From: a virus
Strand: one strand, 5' to 3'
DNA: 64,000 bases
Virus record (IMG/VR): IMGVR_UViG_3300000062_000003
Coordinates: 5,628 to 69,627 of that record
In this document: piece by piece, positions 2,966 to 17,716 of the stretch
Numbering within the stretch: position 1 is the first letter of the stretch
Layout: each line of letters starts with the position of its first letter
Program-made: the position numbers and the translations under genes
The notes under the pieces: model-generated
The model's input: only the letters and a program-made list of their open reading frames with translations
What the model was told of the DNA's origin: nothing
Database searches by the model: none

Positions 2966-3202
2966 CATTTCATCAATTATTTTTCAATTAAAATCAATTT
3001 CCCTATTATACATATAAAAAGGAAGCAAGAATATACATAACATAGACAGCGACTTAAATACAGCTTGTTTAAGACATTATTATAGCGAAAATGATACATT
3101 TATATACTTACAGAAAATAATGCCTTAAAATAAAAAAAATCTAGTTTTTAGTAAGGTGCAAATTATTTTTTGACCTGAGAATATTTACCGCTGCTCTCCG
3201 AT

Positions 3203-3350
3203 GGGTGGGGGTACAGGGAAAATGGTTTTCGGTGCGGGGAGCTGTGGGTAGGTGGATACTCACACACAACATACATCCTATTTTTTTTCACGCATAATAC
3301 ATACAGTAAATTTCTTCACACAACATATATTCTAATTTTTACACAACATA
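3203..3350. other. G-rich patch followed by three ACACAACATA direct repeats; putative genome-end/packaging region
   Basis: Five G3-G5 runs in 3203-3255, then ACACAACATA at 3264, 3318 and 3341, within about 550 bp of non-coding DNA. Confidence 0.4.
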
Positions 3351-8649: not shown

Positions 8650-8925
8650 TTATATGTTAAAATAATAGTTAAAATCAGTTAAAATAATATTATATTGTTG
8701 TTTGGATAAGGCTTCAGGTATCGCACTAGTAATTTCTACAGGTACATTTTCCCTAAAATAAGAAAAGTCTTTATATTTTATAGCTAGGTAGAATTGTCGT
8801 TCAAAATCACAGTGGTCAAGGATGTGCTGACCAACTTCTTCAATCAATTCCCTATACAGCTGATGACTTACATATAATAAATCGTCCTGTTCTTTAGCTA
8901 CTACCTTTTGTCGAATACTATCCAT
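8650..8925 (-). CDS. Hypothetical protein
   Basis: 91-aa ORF. Confidence 0.65.
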   Translation of the reverse strand: MDSIRQKVVAKEQDDLLYVSHQLYRELIEEVGQHILDHCDFERQFYLAIKYKDFSYFRENVPVEITSAIPEALSKQQYNIILTDFNYYFNI

Positions 8926-8937
8926 TTAATTTGAATG

Positions 8938-8968
8938 AAAAAATGTGGCAGTATTCCACCACATTTTC
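8938..8968 (-). terminator. Intrinsic terminator after SSB
   Basis: AAAATGTGG/CCACATTTT inverted repeat plus T-run. Confidence 0.7.
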
Positions 8969-9002
8969 AAATTATGTAACTGTGTGTGTTTTCAATTAAT
9001 TA

Positions 9003-9827
9003 TCAAAAAGGCATCTCATCATCTATAGGAAGTTCTTTACCCTTTACTGTCTCCACATTCTTGGGAGCTACAGGTTTACTTTGCTTCTCATTAGATTTTG
9101 GTGAAGGTGCTGTAGAAGCCTTTAGTTCCTTCGCAATACGTTCTAATTGTTGTTCAAGTACAGTGTTCAAATATTCGTCTTGCTCTGAGAAATCCCATAC
9201 CTCTTTGCCAAATTTTTTAACGACTGCTGGTGATGGAATCACTCCATCTGGGTTCTTGTCTGATTTATATAGTATAGCTGACTTAACAAAATCTCTTTCT
9301 GTACCATTCATATAATTGAAGAATGCAGATATGGAATATGTTTTTTGACCATTATCTTTTACATACTCTTTCTTGCTGGTAGATACAGAATACTCAACAC
9401 TTAAATCAATATTTGGAAGTATTGTAATAATTCCTTTAACTATTTGATTTAGTCCAGTACCCTTTGTATTGTATACTGGTAGTGATATGCATTCTTGATT
9501 TCCTTCTGCTGCCTTTATAAAAATACGAAGCATTGGAACTTCTCCAGTATCAAATTTAGCATTACTAATATCAATGCCTGATATTTTACCATACTCAGTA
9601 CAGTTATATTGTTTGTGGTAGTATTTAGCTCCAGATTGAGAGCTTACTATTTCTGCTACTCCTATATCTGAGCCATCATAACCAGGATTCTCAGCCTGAC
9701 GTTGTAGGAAGATTGTTTTGTCAGTATCTCCTGCCTTATGGAACAATTTACCATTACTGTTTATCTTTAGATATAAAGTACTTGTACCTGCTCCATTTCC
9801 TCCATAATTGTTTGCTACTTCTGCCAT
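9003..9827 (-). CDS. ssb: Single-stranded DNA-binding protein (crAss-type)
   Basis: Flexible tail ending in acidic DDEMPF; next to recA; TAATTTTG promoter at 9879-9886. Confidence 0.75.
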   Translation of the reverse strand: MAEVANNYGGNGAGTSTLYLKINSNGKLFHKAGDTDKTIFLQRQAENPGYDGSDIGVAEIVSSQSGAKYYHKQYNCTEYGKISGIDISNAKFDTGEVPMLRIFIKAAEGNQECISLPVYNTKGTGLNQIVKGIITILPNIDLSVEYSVSTSKKEYVKDNGQKTYSISAFFNYMNGTERDFVKSAILYKSDKNPDGVIPSPAVVKKFGKEVWDFSEQDEYLNTVLEQQLERIAKELKASTAPSPKSNEKQSKPVAPKNVETVKGKELPIDDEMPF

Positions 9828-9929
9828 AATTGTTTAATTTTTTTGGTTGTTTAAAATATTATTGTTGTTTACTGAGTACAAAATTACTCATATAGTTTTA
9901 TATACTAAAATCTATTTTCTTAAAATATA

Positions 9930-10469
9930 TTAATTAGCATTATTAGGTTGTATGGCCTTCCTGAAAAACTTACCTAAAATATTGTCATTCACAAAGATAT
10001 CTTTATTTTGCGGCTCTAATACTCCTTCTGAAAATAAGAAAGCAGTTTCTAAAAATGTTAGTTGAGACTTTGTAGATGCTACTCCTAATACACAACGATG
10101 TACAACAGTCACTTTTCCTGATTGTAAGTCGGATATTAGTTGTTTATCTTTGAAACTACCGAAGTATAACTTCCAATCAGTCTCCCTGACCACCTTTTTC
10201 TTCTTACTACCACGTTTATCTTCCATAGCAGCCAATTCTTTCTTCCCTTTATCTACTTTATTTTCAGAAAGAATTTGTTTTCTACCTATATATCGTTTAC
10301 CATTAGAAAATTGTACCTCATATACAAATCCTATTATGTGGTCACGGTCAATGTCTATAATATGTTTTTCCGCATATGCCCTCTTGAAATCTTCTATTGT
10401 TTCTATATAAAAAGCAGTACCATACTTAGCGGTAGCTGACCATCTTGGTAGTCTTGAATTTATTCTCAT
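9930..10469 (-). CDS. GIY-YIG family nuclease
   Basis: GFVY-x8-YIGRKQ and ETDWKLYFGS motifs; 4-bp overlap with the recA stop. Confidence 0.75.
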   Translation of the reverse strand: MRINSRLPRWSATAKYGTAFYIETIEDFKRAYAEKHIIDIDRDHIIGFVYEVQFSNGKRYIGRKQILSENKVDKGKKELAAMEDKRGSKKKKVVRETDWKLYFGSFKDKQLISDLQSGKVTVVHRCVLGVASTKSQLTFLETAFLFSEGVLEPQNKDIFVNDNILGKFFRKAIQPNNAN

Positions 10470-11518
10470 ACAAAATTATCTATTTTCTCAATTAATTCTA
10501 AATTATCTTCTAGTAAATTTAACATAGCAATCTCTCCCTGTGCAAGGGAAACCTGTGTAAGTTCTCCATTTTCGTCCTTATCTAGGAACTTATACCAAGA
10601 ACCAGCTTTAATTATAGCTCCTTTAGTTAGTGCATCTGTAAGTACTTCTGACATAAATTTGAAACCATCCCCATAAAACATTTTCCATATAGTCTTACCT
10701 TTGGGCATTCCATTCTTATTCTTATATACAGTGACCTTTACATCATTTCCTATTTGCTCTTCTCCTGTTTTTATTGCAGTAGTACCAACCATGTCAATAC
10801 GGACAAATGCATAATACTCCTTAGCAGTTCCTCCAGGAGTAGTCGTTGGCGCACCATATCCACCAATATTCTCTCTGAATTGATTAATCATCACTACGGC
10901 TGTTTTAGTGCGATTTACGGCAGTCAATGCTTTTTTAATACCATTAGACATTCCGCTTGCTTTAAGTCCCATACGGTTAGATATCATGCTGTCATTTTGA
11001 AGGTCAGCCTCTACCATCATAGCATCTATAGAATCAATAACTATAAGGTCATAGTTTTGGAAATAAGTATTCTTTGTTTTGTCGGTCAGGGTGAATTTAT
11101 CTAAATCACAGCACGAAGCATATAAAGTAGAATAAATATCATCCATATCTAAAGTACGTGCAACATCTACTTTGCTCATATCAACACCTAATTTAATTGC
11201 ATATTGTACTTTAAAAGCATGCTCTGCGTCAATAAATAGCACTCTGAAGTCAGGGTTGATTTTTTGATTGTATGCAATTGTCTGTAATACTAATGTAGTT
11301 TTTCCACTAGATTGCATTCCATTTAATAATGTAAAATAACCTTTAGCAAATCCACCACCTATTTTATCATTTAACCAACGAGATGGTGTAGGGATAGCTT
11401 CTATTACATCATCCTTAGGAAGTTCATAGATATCAATATTAAGAGAGTTCTTAATTCTTGCTAGAGTACTTGCCTTAGATTCTCCTGGTTTAATTTCTGT
11501 AGTTTGTTTTCTTGCCAT
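10466..11518 (-). CDS. recA: RecA/UvsX-like recombinase
   Basis: Walker A GMQSSGKTT, FIDAEH, IVIDSI, INQFRENIG, TTPGG and KNK motifs; TAAATTTG promoter at 11540-11547. Confidence 0.95.
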   Translation of the reverse strand: MARKQTTEIKPGESKASTLARIKNSLNIDIYELPKDDVIEAIPTPSRWLNDKIGGGFAKGYFTLLNGMQSSGKTTLVLQTIAYNQKINPDFRVLFIDAEHAFKVQYAIKLGVDMSKVDVARTLDMDDIYSTLYASCCDLDKFTLTDKTKNTYFQNYDLIVIDSIDAMMVEADLQNDSMISNRMGLKASGMSNGIKKALTAVNRTKTAVVMINQFRENIGGYGAPTTTPGGTAKEYYAFVRIDMVGTTAIKTGEEQIGNDVKVTVYKNKNGMPKGKTIWKMFYGDGFKFMSEVLTDALTKGAIIKAGSWYKFLDKDENGELTQVSLAQGEIAMLNLLEDNLELIEKIDNFV

Positions 11519-12361
11519 ATATTATCTTTCTATTAAGTACAAATTTAATAATTTATATTTTAATACACAAATAGAAAAAGTTAATTTAATATAAATCAGA
11601 TATATAAGTAAAATTATGTATGTTTAACAATATAAATTTGTATACATTATTATATTGTAGTATCTTTACATCAGTTTAAAGAGATAAACTCTGTTATTTG
11701 ACTATGTGATATACGATTCTAACAGTAATTATTGGTACAGGTATTTTTACCAGACAGATATATAGTGAGTATTTTTCTGAATTGAAGAACTACGAAAAAC
11801 TTCTTTTCACTAAGGGCAACCGATTGCTTATTATATATTTCCGAAGCCAAGTTCAAACACGTTAAAGGGCGTGGGCTTTGTAGACGTTGGATTGTAGGCG
11901 CGCCATTAATTTGGAAACATAGTGCTGAGGTTTCTCCGATACTGTCAAAAATATCCTTAGTATAAGTATTATAATCATACTGTTGTCCTCTCCTTCGTAG
12001 GGAGTTACAGGCAAAAAGGACTTTAGGTAACATTAATCTTCGGATTATAGAGACGGGCAGTTTAAATGATTATGTGTGAAAGCTAAGGATGAAATCGGCG
12101 CAGGTAACTGTTGCTCAACTTTTTGAAGAAAATTCATTAAGGGCTTTTTCCTATGTACATACATTAAGTATTTAAAATAATATATTTTTCAGCCAATTAT
12201 AATATTTAAAGAATATAATATCAGCCAGTTAATAAGTTTAGCAGTTAATTTGTTATACTTATTATTAGTAAAGCAGATAATTTATATATCTTAAATATCT
12301 GGGTATACCCCTAGTGCAAACTAGACGCTTTCGAGGTCAGGGTACTAGCTTTTGAATCTTA

Positions 12362-12475
12362 TAGCTAGAATTTAAACTAGCTAGAATTTAAACTAGCTAG
12401 AATTTAAACTAGCTAGAATTTAAACTAGCTAGAATTTAAACTAGCTAGAATTTAAACTAGCTAGAATTTAAACTA
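12362..12475. repeat. Tandem array 7 x TAGCTAGAATTTAAAC (iteron-like; origin candidate)
   Basis: Seven perfect 16-bp units with no spacers, in the divergent intergenic region; flanked by GGTCAGGG (12335-12342) and CCCTGACC (12481-12488). Confidence 0.9.
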
Positions 12476-12661
12476 CACACCCCTGACCACCTTATTAAAG
12501 TTAAATATAGTTATAAATTAACTAATATCTTATATCCTGTATATTAGTAAGGCTATAGGCAATAACTATGTGAAATTCTTTCCTTTGCATGTTGTGATAA
12601 CAGTATATATCGGATACCGCATGTAGAAACCAATTACAATACAGTCAGGTATTTCGAGATT

Positions 12662-12694
12662 AAGTGTATTAGAGCCATCTAATACACTTTTTTT
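12662..12694 (+). terminator. Intrinsic terminator in the putative origin region
   Basis: AAGTGTATTAGA/TCTAATACACTT hairpin plus T-run. Confidence 0.75.
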
Positions 12695-12759
12695 CGTTTT
12701 ATACCATATGGAAATAGTTAAATTAAGTTAAAATATTTGGAAATGTAGTAATTATGTTG

Positions 12760-12767
12760 TATATTTG
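12760..12767 (+). promoter_or_regulatory. -7 promoter element TATATTTG for the rightward operon
   Basis: Exact TAnnTTTG 4 nt upstream of ATG 12772. Confidence 0.6.
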
Positions 12768-12771
12768 TTGG

Positions 12772-12927
12772 ATGAAGTTTATTCTTAGGTATTTTAAATC
12801 TCTATATTTTAAAAATAGAAAGATAGATAAGAAATGTGATAACTGTGTAAGACAACATACACTACACTGTCCAAATAGTTTCTTCTGTTATGCTACTGAA
12901 GAAAAACCGTTCTTTTTAAGTAAATAA
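12772..12927 (+). CDS. Small Cys/His-rich protein (51 aa), possibly leaderless
   Basis: MKFILRYF...KCDNCVRQHTLHCPNSFFC; manual translation, below the ORF-track cutoff. Confidence 0.55.
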   Translation: MKFILRYFKSLYFKNRKIDKKCDNCVRQHTLHCPNSFFCYATEEKPFFLSK

Positions 12928-12938
12928 AAAAATAAAGT

Positions 12939-13361
12939 ATGCAAAAGAGTTTTTCTTTGGATGTTACAGTTACAGCCAAAAGTAATTATGATAAGTTATT
13001 AAGTGCAATTAAGATGTATGTACGACTCAAGGAAGTTATCTTAATGAACGAAATATCTGATGAAGCTCTTGGAACTAAGTTAAAGGAGTTGCGCTTGCCT
13101 ATTGAGGAGAAATGCCTCAAGGTTCTTACATATTATGTAATGTATGGATTCTCAAAGGAGACTAATGCAGAATGTTGCAAGGAATTAAAACTTAGCAGAC
13201 AAACTAATACACAGATTATTTCATATCTAACAAAACAGGGGTTTTTAACAAAAGATATTTTCAATCAGACAATGCGCCATATTAATGAAGAATTAATAGC
13301 ATTGAAACAATTGATAACAAGACAAGAGAGGAGTATTATCTCTATTGAGTTTGTATCATGA
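12939..13361 (+). CDS. Hypothetical protein, possible HTH
   Basis: 140 aa; helical pattern CKELKLSRQTNTQIISYLTKQG. Confidence 0.75.
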   Translation: MQKSFSLDVTVTAKSNYDKLLSAIKMYVRLKEVILMNEISDEALGTKLKELRLPIEEKCLKVLTYYVMYGFSKETNAECCKELKLSRQTNTQIISYLTKQGFLTKDIFNQTMRHINEELIALKQLITRQERSIISIEFVS

Positions 13362-13798
13362 ACAATGGGAACAGGGAAATTTATGAAACAGAAGTTGAGA
13401 TATTAGAAAAGGTTTATCAACAATTACAACAACAAGGGGAGTATATAACAAGAACCCAATTACAATATCTATATAAGGTTATTACAAAATATATAACATC
13501 ACAGAGCCACTCCCCAGACACTCTTGGAATAGTACTACCACATCTAGGATGTCTTTACTTATCAGAAAAATCTATTTTAAGTAAGTTAAGAGGACTCAGG
13601 AAAACAAAACAATATGATAGGTTCGATTTATACACACAAAAGTTAGACAAATTATATAATGAAGTCCCTGAAGAGCAGATGTATAAATCTATATATTTTC
13701 AACCTAGGCTAAGAAATATAAAGAAATTAACTAATGGAATAACAATTCAAGAAGTTATTAGAAGGCAAAATAATGATTACGAAAAAATCAAAGGTTAA
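13358..13798 (+). CDS. HU/IHF-like DNA-binding protein (putative)
   Basis: Helix-helix then IVLPHLGCLYL, resembling the HU/IHF V.L.xFG.F strand. Confidence 0.5.
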   Translation: MNNGNREIYETEVEILEKVYQQLQQQGEYITRTQLQYLYKVITKYITSQSHSPDTLGIVLPHLGCLYLSEKSILSKLRGLRKTKQYDRFDLYTQKLDKLYNEVPEEQMYKSIYFQPRLRNIKKLTNGITIQEVIRRQNNDYEKIKG

Positions 13799-14438
13799 TA
13801 CAATAGTAAGCGCATTTTTATCTACCATACGAGGGATAGATGAAAATATGGATGTACCAGAGAAGGAGTTAGATAATCGCCGATTATCATGTGATGGGTG
13901 TCCTTATAATAGTAAAAACGTACCAGACGACAAGAAAAGTCTGTATAACACTGCACGAAACACTACATTAGGTACATTTTGTACTATTTGCAATTGTAAT
14001 ATAAAGGAAAAGACATTATCACCAAATGAGCAATGTGCATTAGTGGAAAAGGGCAGAAAACCACTATGGAATAGGCTGGCAGTTTTAACAGAGGGAAAGA
14101 CAGTTGACTTAATAAACCTATCTCCTGACAAAATAAATATAGATGCCGACAAAAACAACTACTTAATATATACTGATGTTATACTACTGGATTTAAATTT
14201 TAAGTTTGGTATTAGAACAAAGGAGATAATAGAAAACATTCTATATGTAAGGAGTACCTGCCCTTGCATAAAAGTAAATGATTTTACATCTAGTGATACC
14301 ATGATAGAGGTTAATGCTACAATTAAAGCAGGAACAATAAAACAAGGATTATTCAGTAAATTTTTATATGTTTCCTATACTTCCACCCAAGGAGAAACTG
14401 TGCGGTTAGGAATACAACTAAAGGGACAGAAAGCATGA
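13773..14438 (+). CDS. Cys-rich protein with C-terminal Ig-like domain
   Basis: RRLSCDGCP...CTICNC...QC cluster, then a beta-rich domain. Confidence 0.75.
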   Translation: MITKKSKVNTIVSAFLSTIRGIDENMDVPEKELDNRRLSCDGCPYNSKNVPDDKKSLYNTARNTTLGTFCTICNCNIKEKTLSPNEQCALVEKGRKPLWNRLAVLTEGKTVDLINLSPDKINIDADKNNYLIYTDVILLDLNFKFGIRTKEIIENILYVRSTCPCIKVNDFTSSDTMIEVNATIKAGTIKQGLFSKFLYVSYTSTQGETVRLGIQLKGQKA

Positions 14439-15595: not shown

Positions 15596-17716
15596 ATGTT
15601 ATATAACACCTTTCACATATACAACAAAAACGCACCAGAGTGGGACAGTACAGTAGATAAATTCGAAGCCCAAGCTCCCGAAGTTCAACTCTATTATATG
15701 TTAGAGTTTTTAAAACTACGTAGAGGTGTTTCATTTGGTACTGTAAAAATACATCCTTGGTTATACTGGCATCTCAACTATTTTAATATAATGGTTGACC
15801 AGCAAGATGAATTTGGTAATTCTGCTGGGTCTAAAAGAATGTTGCCATCCTTCCGTGACAACGAATGGATAATAAATGAACACTTACTAGAGGCTGACTC
15901 TGGGAGAAAGAAAGGTATCATGATTATGGGAAGCCGTCGCTTGAGTAAATCAGTGTTCGAGGCATCCTATACAGGTTGGAACGCCACAGTTAAAGAGGGA
16001 GGTGATGACAGACCATGCCTGATTGCTGGAGGAAGTGTAAAGGATTTAAATAACATCACAGCTTATCTTGAAACTGGGATGAAACTAATGCATCCTATGT
16101 TTAATCTTTACCCTCCCACTACTACAAACTGGATGGGAGACAGTGGAGTTAAATTTGGATATAAAGATACTCGAAACGTAGGACATATTCACTCAACAGT
16201 AAGAGTTGTAAACCTAGCATCTGGTAGTCAATCTATGGCGGGATGGACTCCCATAAGTGCAGTATTTGATGAAGTTGGTAAAGTAGATATAAAGCATCAC
16301 TTCTCGGTCGCAAGTCCGTCATTATCCACACCTTACGGATGGCGTGTAGCCCCTGTGCTTTCTGGAACAGGAGGAAGCGTAGACTTAGTACAACCTTCAA
16401 AAGAGATGTTTTATCATCCAGAACTCCACAATTTCGTAAAAATGAAGTGGGATATGCTGGACAATCATACTCCTCCAGACCTTAGAACATGGTCAACAGG
16501 TTTAGAGTGCGGAGTATTTTTACCTGGACAAGTATCTCTAGAGTTTCCAAAACGGAAGACTACATTTGCAAAGTATTTAAAGGTTGAAAATGAGTATTTA
16601 GATAAAATAGAATTTAATGAGACCAATTGGGAATTTGCTACTCCGAAGTTAAAGGAAGACCAAGAGAATGCCAGGCTGGTAGATATGCAAACATATCTAA
16701 ATAGAAAGACCCATTACCCAGGAGATGTTCCTGATTGTTTTCTTGATAATAAAATAAACCCATTCCCTGCTGCGGATGCTCTTACTCATAGATTAGAACT
16801 AGAGAATAGCGGTCAAACAGACTTTGGATATGATGTAAAATTAGAACAAGGTACTAATAAACTAATAATAACTCCAAGTGAGAAATTATTAGCTGGATTC
16901 CCATTTGAAGGAGGTAACATTGATTCTCCAGTACAGATATTTATAAGTCCTCCAGAGATACCTAAATTTAATAATTTATTTGTAGGAGGACTGGACTGTT
17001 ACAAACAGGATAAGTCTTCCACATCTTCCTTAGGTACTTTCTACATCCTTCAACGGATGGGCAAGATTAATGACCGTAACTCTTACAAGATTGCTGCATC
17101 ATTAGCAACACGCCCCGACTCCTCCGAAGAGTTCTATACATCAATACGAACATTACAATTAGGGTATGGAGCTAAAACACTACAAGAAGCAGCCGACCTT
17201 GGGTATGAACAATTTCTCAAGTTAAAATATAAGAGCCAGCTCCATCTGTTGTTAGTAGATGGTAGAAGAATCTCCAAAACAGGTATAGGTAAACTGGGAG
17301 GGCAATCTAATGTACAATTTGGACTGTTTCCCACAAAACTTCATAAACAATTAGTATTAGATGCTGCTGTCAGATACTGCCAGGAAGAAGTAGAAATACG
17401 AAATGAAGATGGAGATTCCGAATTAAAAAAAGGAGTATATCGAATAGACGATGTTGCTCTTTTAAAAGAAATAGAAGGATATTCAGATGGTCGAAATGTA
17501 GACCGTATAGTAGCATTTGGACATGCTGTGTTATGGGCAGAGTATCTTGATTCAATTCACGCAGTCCCTGACACCAATACAACACAAGAGGAACAAGAAG
17601 CAGCCAATGTTAAACATAGACCACCAATAAATGAAATTAAAAAGTATAACGAGCATGCTATAAGACAGAGACGAAGGGTGTTAGGTGGTGGAAGAGCTTT
17701 TGGCTACAGAAGATAG
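15596..17716 (+). CDS. terL: Terminase large subunit
   Basis: ATPase GSRRLSKS (Walker A-like) and VFDEVGK (Walker B); nuclease GGLDCY and NVDRIVAFG. Confidence 0.92.
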   Translation: MLYNTFHIYNKNAPEWDSTVDKFEAQAPEVQLYYMLEFLKLRRGVSFGTVKIHPWLYWHLNYFNIMVDQQDEFGNSAGSKRMLPSFRDNEWIINEHLLEADSGRKKGIMIMGSRRLSKSVFEASYTGWNATVKEGGDDRPCLIAGGSVKDLNNITAYLETGMKLMHPMFNLYPPTTTNWMGDSGVKFGYKDTRNVGHIHSTVRVVNLASGSQSMAGWTPISAVFDEVGKVDIKHHFSVASPSLSTPYGWRVAPVLSGTGGSVDLVQPSKEMFYHPELHNFVKMKWDMLDNHTPPDLRTWSTGLECGVFLPGQVSLEFPKRKTTFAKYLKVENEYLDKIEFNETNWEFATPKLKEDQENARLVDMQTYLNRKTHYPGDVPDCFLDNKINPFPAADALTHRLELENSGQTDFGYDVKLEQGTNKLIITPSEKLLAGFPFEGGNIDSPVQIFISPPEIPKFNNLFVGGLDCYKQDKSSTSSLGTFYILQRMGKINDRNSYKIAASLATRPDSSEEFYTSIRTLQLGYGAKTLQEAADLGYEQFLKLKYKSQLHLLLVDGRRISKTGIGKLGGQSNVQFGLFPTKLHKQLVLDAAVRYCQEEVEIRNEDGDSELKKGVYRIDDVALLKEIEGYSDGRNVDRIVAFGHAVLWAEYLDSIHAVPDTNTTQEEQEAANVKHRPPINEIKKYNEHAIRQRRRVLGGGRAFGYRR

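Follow-up and report, generated by a model that had tools for sequence, protein, structure and literature searches.

At the point where two gene blocks diverge, the genome of an uncultured crAss-like phage carries seven perfect copies of a 16-bp unit. We regard this array, with about an even chance of being right, as a recent, slippage-driven tandem repeat of unstable copy number (VNTR) that lies in a long control spacer beside a conserved motif box. The analysis shows that the array is real, that two assemblies of this phage differ in its copy number, that it occurs once and in one lineage only, and that the neighbouring box is conserved. The original prediction for this stretch of DNA had proposed an iteron-type bidirectional origin with one polar site per replication fork. 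Most of the sequence features that it described are there as stated, while the functional reading placed on them finds less support than a repeat that grows and shrinks by slippage.

The array lies in a long spacer between divergent gene blocks

The window analyzed here is a 64-kb stretch (bases 5628-69627) of the 110,764-bp IMG/VR record IMGVR_UViG_3300000062_000003; all coordinates refer to the window unless stated otherwise, and the features of the spacer are collected in Table 1. The record is classed as linear, has 35% GC and a CheckV completeness estimate of 73%, and no end repeats were found in it. Its TerL shares about 34% identity with its counterparts in phage csAssE-Sib and in the Cellulophaga phages phi17:2 and phi4:1, with weaker matches to crAss-like gut phages. 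The source virus is a distant crAss-like phage with a putative Bacteroidota-type host. A TerL search of the viral_contigs collection gave zero matches, and the sole match of a TerL profile search of genome_contigs, a relative at 31%, comes from a metagenome bin with the label Lachnospiraceae and is uninformative on the host. Many TerL homologues of this phage group (P0003, P0014-P0016, P0027, P0037 and others) are 900-1240 aa long because of intein and LAGLIDADG insertions. The genome is also devoid of GATC (0 in 110.8 kb versus about 352 expected), TCGA is three-fold depleted (113 versus 352 expected) and CTAG occurs at expectation. Such a composition is a sign that sites for a GATC-specific restriction system of the host are strongly avoided.

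Table 1. Coordinates of the array, the surrounding spacer elements and the adjoining genes in the window
Feature	Position	Strand	Basis or remark
RecA/UvsX-like gene	10466-11518	-	left of the array
Bacteroidota-type promoter of the leftward RecA-like operon (TTTG, 20 nt, TAAATTTG)	11540-11571	-	pattern
Probable rightward promoter (TTTG, 20 nt, TATCTTTA)	11637-11668	+	predicted from match in sequence and spacing to L001 6885-6925
104-codon ORF, sole spacer ORF	11719-12033	-	weak NUMOD1 match, odd composition
AT-rich left flank of the array	12100-12300		about 18-26% GC
Left polar-motif copy GGTCAGGG, directed at the array	12335-12342	+	motif search
Decayed eighth unit TAGCTTTTGAATCTTA, left array edge	12346-12361	+	repeat-family comparison
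Tandem array, seven exact TAGCTAGAATTTAAAC units plus TA	12362-12475	+	Tandem Repeats Finder, pattern search
Box CCCTGACCACCTTATTAAA, right array edge; first 8 nt are GGTCAGGG on the - strand	12481-12499	+	conserved in L001
AT-rich right flank of the array	12489-12560		about 24% GC
Terminator-like hairpin, 12-bp stem and T-rich tail, between array and next promoter	12662-12699	+	hairpin search
Consensus Bacteroidota-type promoter of the rightward operon (TTTG, 20 nt, TATATTTG)	12736-12767	+	pattern
First right-arm gene, 140 aa, winged-helix (MarR/CodY-HTH-like)	12939-13361	+	Atlas features and structure (a lead only)

The array is hosted by a spacer of about 1.4 kb (11519-12938) without a called gene, which separates leftward early genes, the RecA-like gene first among them, from a rightward packaging and structural operon. 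A GIY-YIG endonuclease gene and small ORFs are also encoded on the - strand to the left, and six small ORFs, then TerL (15596-17716) and then the structural genes follow on the + strand to the right. The third right-arm gene encodes an Ig-like protein of the DUF1573/HYDIN type. The ORF immediately before TerL occupies the same position as the annotated putative small terminase of csAssE-Sib, and the array lies about 2.7 kb upstream of this ORF and 3.1 kb upstream of TerL. Genes for DNA polymerase A and a DnaB-like helicase are found far down the right arm (genome 80-106 kb, 62-88 kb from the array).

Promoters were identified with the Bacteroidota-type pattern TTTG, 20 nt, TAnnTTTG. The leftward promoter falls inside the most AT-rich 200 bp of the whole genome (11489-11690, 16% GC), about 0.8 kb left of the array. 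The probable rightward promoter next to it has an imperfect -7 box; if active, it may transcribe the spacer including the array. The 104-codon spacer ORF is uncalled in the second assembly described below and absent from L001, the closest relative found, and is probably a decayed or spurious gene. Between the consensus rightward promoter and the first right-arm gene lies a 51-codon ORF with a C-x2-C ... H-C pattern (12772-12927), which the gene finder of the second assembly did not call. An Rfam search of the spacer produced sub-threshold microRNA-like matches only, because the array repeat is palindromic. No tRNA was found near the array. A dif-like site at the array was considered and dropped, since the only matches nearby were weak ones with 5-6 mismatches, as expected of AT-rich DNA; a putative likeness of the array unit to the arms of B. 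subtilis dif was dropped as well.

The array itself is by far the strongest tandem repeat of the window, with a Tandem Repeats Finder score of 228 (period 16, 7.1 copies, 100% matches) versus 61 for the next-best array. The seven exact units span 12362-12473. Each unit consists of CTAGCTAG followed by AATTTAAA, and the palindromes CTAGCTAG and TTTAAA arise at the unit junctions. No further copy of the unit with up to two mismatches was found in the 64-kb window or in the 110,764-bp genome, and CTAGCTAG does not occur elsewhere in the genome. The exact two-unit pattern had no match in IMG/VR contigs or JGI metagenome contigs. BLAST of 12330-12500 returned a single 23-nt chance match in the phage collection and zero matches in the plasmid collection, and BLAST of 11000-14000 against the phage collection returned zero matches.

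The seven perfect units, the junction palindromes and the divergence of leftward genes on the - strand from rightward genes on the + strand thus stand as originally described, as does the AT-rich DNA on both sides of the array (18-25% GC), with the most AT-rich DNA of the genome lying 0.8 kb further left. The inverted motif pair around the array needs a small correction. Both copies are present, the right one as CCCTGACC, the reverse complement of GGTCAGGG, at 12481-12488, but the gaps to the array are 19 bp on the left and 5 bp on the right (7 bp if the trailing TA counts as spacer) and not 20 and 6 bp. With 47 copies of GGTCAGGG in 110.8 kb, both array edges would have one of them no more than 25 bp away with a probability of about 1e-4. 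Folded as single-stranded DNA, the region 12325-12498 forms a single long, imperfect hairpin with the motif pair at its base (-35.9 kcal/mol, z = -10 versus shuffles). The fold is this strong because the array unit is palindromic; it agrees with a sequence prone to slippage, and possibly with a cruciform or a hairpin in RNA, and is not proof of function.

Two assemblies of the same phage differ in repeat copy number

The same phage is represented by two contigs (names k141_...) in a second, independent assembly, ENA ERZ27245258, and these show zero substitutions relative to the record across the roughly 33 kb compared. These contigs break exactly at the array. The left-arm contig (18,216 bp) ends with the left flank, seven units and TAGCTA, and the right-arm contig (92,815 bp) begins with AAAC, followed by seven units, TA and the right flank. 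Each broken end is made of 23 unique nt and 118 nt of pure repeat, together 141 nt, which equals k. The 118-nt repeat ends are incompatible with the 114-nt array of the window. Since neither end fits a 114-nt array, at least eight units must be present in that sample; judging from how the assembler is expected to behave, this minimum would rise to nine if a k = 119 step had been the source of the 118 nt. The window's count of seven copies is not secure, because an independent assembly has more than seven units when approached from both sides.

The sole other difference between the assemblies in the roughly 33 kb compared is likewise a repeat. A 12-bp sequence, TTGTGTTATGTA, at genome positions of about 1410-1470 (left of the window), is present in 5 copies in the record and in 3 copies in ERZ27245258, a difference of 24 bp. 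This difference is real, because both arrays are far shorter than k and are spanned by a single k-mer. Repeat differences without any substitution mean that repeat length in this phage changes faster than point substitutions accrue. The suggestion in the original prediction of a recent expansion with variable copy number fits these data well, as two assemblies that lack any substitution disagree both at the array and at TTGTGTTATGTA. The 12-bp repeat adjoins a C-rich box, CCACCTCCCCCACCC.

The left-arm contig of ERZ27245258 extends 134 bp past the start of the record into another - strand gene, which has an N-terminal CPHCG zinc-ribbon motif (L006:16562-16699). The 110,764-bp record is therefore truncated at its start (CheckV 73%). 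We take this N-terminus to resemble an IS1595-type transposase. A mobile element at this position might explain why both assemblies break there.

A 19-bp box, and not the array, is conserved between spacers

The closest relative, L001, has a TerL with 76% amino-acid identity and is about 70% identical in nucleotide sequence over 69% of the locus. Its gene order is that of the phage studied here, and the array is missing. At the corresponding place L001 has a weak 15-bp repeat in three copies and a single unit-like sequence, AATTTA..AAACTAG. The two spacers were compared by short-word BLAST, as their MAFFT alignment was uninformative in this AT-rich DNA. The sole clearly conserved block is CCCTGACCACCT[T/A]ATTAAA (CCCTGACCACCTWATTAAA), which is 18/19 identical in L001 and lies at the right edge of the array. 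Judged by this comparison, the conserved element of the spacer is the 19-bp box and not the array.

More distant relatives show neither element or do not reach the region. L002 (TerL 49%) has neither the array nor the box, and the equivalent spacer of csAssE-Sib is 54 bp long. Two more relatives with about 50% TerL identity do not cover the spacer: one contig starts inside the first right-arm gene and the other is without the region. The expectation that the array is kept in relatives does not hold for L001, although L001 is only about 70% identical in nucleotide sequence, nor does it hold for L002 and csAssE-Sib. Given this distance, the absence from L001 is only weak evidence against a function.

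Further repeated elements occur in the left arm and at the genome end. The left arm contains six perfect host-type parS sites, TGTTCCACGTGGAACA, 11-16 kb from the array. All six are located between two elements of like construction that are inverted and about 7.4 kb apart (G000:C1:1380-1620 and window 3150-3350), each with short TATGTTGTGT-type repeats beside a G/C-rich box, CCACCT.CCC..CCGAAA.CCA. Judging from contig geometry, the 67-kb L001 contig appears to stop near the equivalent of the 3150-3350 element. The last 80 bases of the genome (window-equivalent 105062-105095) contain a hairpin made by a converging motif pair, AGTCAGGGGAGG, 6 nt and CCTCCCTGACT. This hairpin is located just past the last right-arm gene and is followed by CCTAGAATTTCAATC, which is similar to the array unit.

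The motifs flanking the array belong to a genome-wide strand-polar family

The 8-mer GGTCAGGG is the most over-represented 8-mer of the genome (68-fold), with 25 copies in the window versus 0.6 expected and 47 copies in the genome versus 0.7 expected. The 7-mer GTCAGGG it contains occurs 82 times, nearly always within genes, and the two arms differ in its orientation: 13 copies on the + strand and 4 on the - strand in the left arm, 12 and 53 in the right arm. Taken 5' to 3', the copies of both arms run towards the array. Within genes the sense strand carries CCCTGAC, with no preference between the two stop-free frames (25 and 25); selection therefore acts on the nucleic acid and not on a peptide.

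A similar flip of polarity is seen in L001, which lacks the array (3:1 left, 1:7 right). There the top motif is shifted to CTGACCACC, distributed 11:2 on the two strands of the whole locus. This version and CCCTGACC of the window overlap by CCTGACC, and the conserved 19-bp box contains both versions. From the sequences it looks as if the motif and its reader co-evolve.

The polarity of the motif is perfectly confounded with gene direction. The claim of one polar site per fork is therefore unsupported: the motif has 82 copies, nearly all of them in genes, and its polarity flips in an array-less relative too. The 8-mers that flank the array are part of a genome-wide strand-polar motif that switches at the spacer and are not origin-specific fork sites.

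Slippage may account for an identical, variable and lineage-specific repeat

The array consists of identical head-to-tail units, its copy number differs between near-identical genomes, and it is lineage-specific and derived from local sequence. Local derivation is indicated by the decayed unit at the left edge and by the single unit-like sequence at the same place in L001. In its perfect head-to-tail units, its location in a long non-coding region, its varying copy number and its restriction to one lineage, the array resembles known VNTRs. Unlike them, it has a doubly palindromic unit and is bracketed by two inverted copies of a polar motif found across the genome.

We infer that slipped-strand mispairing of a local 16-bp sequence composed of the two palindromes, CTAGCTAG and TTTAAA, would have generated the array. 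The hairpin-prone unit would promote slippage, and repeated gain and loss of units would keep the copies identical. Under such a mechanism the array would be dispensable or at most modulatory, acting for instance through spacing, cruciform potential or the number of protein-binding sites.

Three points speak against this reading. A unit of two perfect palindromes and a motif copy no more than 25 bp from either edge have the look of design and not of neutral sequence. Absence of the array from L001 is weak evidence, since this nearest relative is distant and the sites that proteins bind, iterons included, change fast along with those proteins. Furthermore, a difference in copy number does not exclude a function, as arrays of plasmid centromeres and iterons vary too.

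Functional alternatives are individually less probable

A functional reading that we hold to be rather unlikely is that of a multimerised binding platform or an RNA element. A dimeric phage protein would coat the palindromic units, which would then serve as operator, silencer or centromere-like site; alternatively, the array would be part of a leader or non-coding RNA of about 1 kb, running from the probable rightward promoter to the terminator-like hairpin. A unit made of two palindromes is what dimeric proteins prefer. The first right-arm gene product is winged-helix-like, and the csAssE-Sib counterpart of the second carries the annotation 'DNA-binding'. However, the winged-helix protein is 70% identical in L001, which is without the array, and the array is more than 260 bp away from the nearest consensus promoter and hence is no classical operator. 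Plasmid centromeres such as F sopC and R1 parC are typically near-identical tandem arrays, and the six host-type parS sites suggest episomal maintenance. In the partition systems F sopC, R1 parC and tubC each near-identical repeat is a binding site for a dimeric adaptor, but those arrays adjoin an operon for the NTPase and the adaptor. None was found at the phage array: the scanned ORFs, flanking ones included, gave no ParA-, ParM- or TubZ-type match, and the parS sites of the phage are 11-16 kb away. As for an RNA element, a promoter homologous to one in L001 lies upstream and a terminator downstream, and the single-stranded region folds as one long hairpin closed by the motif pair. Against this stands the imperfect -7 box of that promoter.

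The iteron-type bidirectional origin of the original prediction is, in our estimate, unlikely. An initiator from phage or host would bind the seven units, the AT-rich flank would melt and forks would leave both ways, co-oriented with transcription. The location in a spacer without a called gene at the gene divergence, the flanks with 18-25% GC, which provide an adjacent AT-rich element for unwinding, and a cumulative GC-skew minimum close by all agree with this. In a linear genome whose ends fall at the convergent point, the origin would sit at 16% of the length, for which the T7 origin offers a comparison. Such a linear genome is hinted at by the matching arm geometry (19 kb / 92 kb) of the 111.7-kb L002 contig. 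Prototypic crAssphage origins have been predicted at the strand switch by OriFinder, skew and nanopore coverage, where they lie beside repL genes and are backed by a gradient of nanopore coverage (PMC10983915). The array shares with them the boundary of oppositely transcribed gene blocks and the change of GC-skew sign, but no repL-like gene was found at the array.

The skew does not single out the array. It changes sign near 11-12 kb, as does gene direction, with which it is fully confounded. The right-arm sign (G 131, C 105) is already present in 816 bp of spacer to the left of the array, and both the skew switch and the most AT-rich DNA (11489-11690) are about 0.8 kb left of the array. The predicted skew minimum is thus found near the spacer, whereas the switch itself misses the array and coincides with the switch in gene direction. 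An origin somewhere within the 11519-12938 spacer is possible.

The array also departs from known iterons, which are imperfect repeats of 17-22 bp, mostly with a phase of about 11 or 22 bp, and are located in or beside a Rep gene, often with DnaA or IHF sites. Like the iteron origins lambda ori, P1 oriR, R6K gamma and pSC101, the array combines several direct repeats with adjoining AT-rich DNA that melts easily, within non-coding control DNA. Its units, by contrast, have a length of 16 bp (1.5 helical turns), are contiguous and perfectly identical, and vary in number. Searches of the array-flanking ORFs with Pfam, PHROGs and Atlas, which could miss very divergent initiators, gave no Rep, RepL, O or DnaD-type match, and the genes for PolA and the DnaB-like helicase are 62-88 kb off. 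The DnaA box TTATCCACA is absent within 8701-13414 at up to one mismatch, while 57 are present genome-wide versus about 41 in shuffles. With no initiator-type gene found beside it, no DnaA box in the spacer, a unit that is unique in the genome and no array in L001 or L002, the iteron reading is unsupported.

The third alternative, a DNA-end or terminus site, is in our view quite unlikely. Packaging would start there, or the genome would end there, or the array would be a point of dimer resolution or termination, with a Chi- or KOPS-like motif converging on it. For Chi, convergence indicates a terminus, which amounts to a DNA end that a RecBCD-type enzyme leaves in the outward direction. Were the array broken, an enzyme of the RecBCD/AddAB type loading at the break would run into a motif in the proper orientation after 5-19 bp, whichever side it took. 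The abundance of the motif, its selection at the level of nucleic acid and its convergence on the array, as described above, fit this reading. KOPS is GGGNAGGG and SRS is GAGAAGGG, and convergence of KOPS marks dif or the terminus, while origins show divergence (PMC3384302). The phage 8-mer is like KOPS, SRS and Chi in being G-rich, strongly over-represented and strand-polar with a flip between arms, and a single base separates it from GGGCAGGG, the best KOPS of E. coli (PMC3384302). By those rules the phage copies, which point at the array, would indicate a terminus or DNA end rather than an origin. The relative L001, however, uses the shifted motif CTGACCACC. A literature search for GGTCAGGG as Chi or KOPS found nothing relevant.

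The position of the array upstream of the small-terminase-position ORF (about 2.7 kb) and of TerL (3.1 kb) would likewise suit a packaging site. The R sites of lambda cosB and the hexamer repeats of P1 pac are also found upstream of terminase genes. These repeats differ from the array in being dispersed, imperfect and adjacent to a cleavage site. CrAss-like phages package by short terminal repeats or by a pac-type mechanism (PMC8042965). The convergence point of an 82-copy Chi/KOPS-like motif and the six left-arm parS sites would together make a chromosome-like layout, with the array as a DNA-end, packaging or termination site that a host translocase or nuclease guards or addresses, and not an origin; this, too, strikes us as doubtful. 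The polarity of the motif can equally be attributed to gene direction, it flips in the array-less L001 as well, and no good dif-like site was found near the array.

That an assembler created the array or its seven copies is highly improbable, for although the copy number differs between assemblies and one assembler failed to cross the array, the independent assembly ERZ27245258 has the identical unit, location and flanks, and a 114-nt array is below common final k values and can be a real allele.

Implications for crAss-like phages

What is solid in this region is a hypervariable repeat, a conserved 19-bp box and the polarity switch of a very abundant 7-8-mer; the iteron origin was an assumption. 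The array can be used as a strain-typing marker for this phage. Replication, packaging and persistence of crAss-like phages are largely unknown, and any mapped cis-acting site would therefore be useful. Experiments on replication, packaging or end protection would do better to target the conserved box and the polar motif than the repeat.
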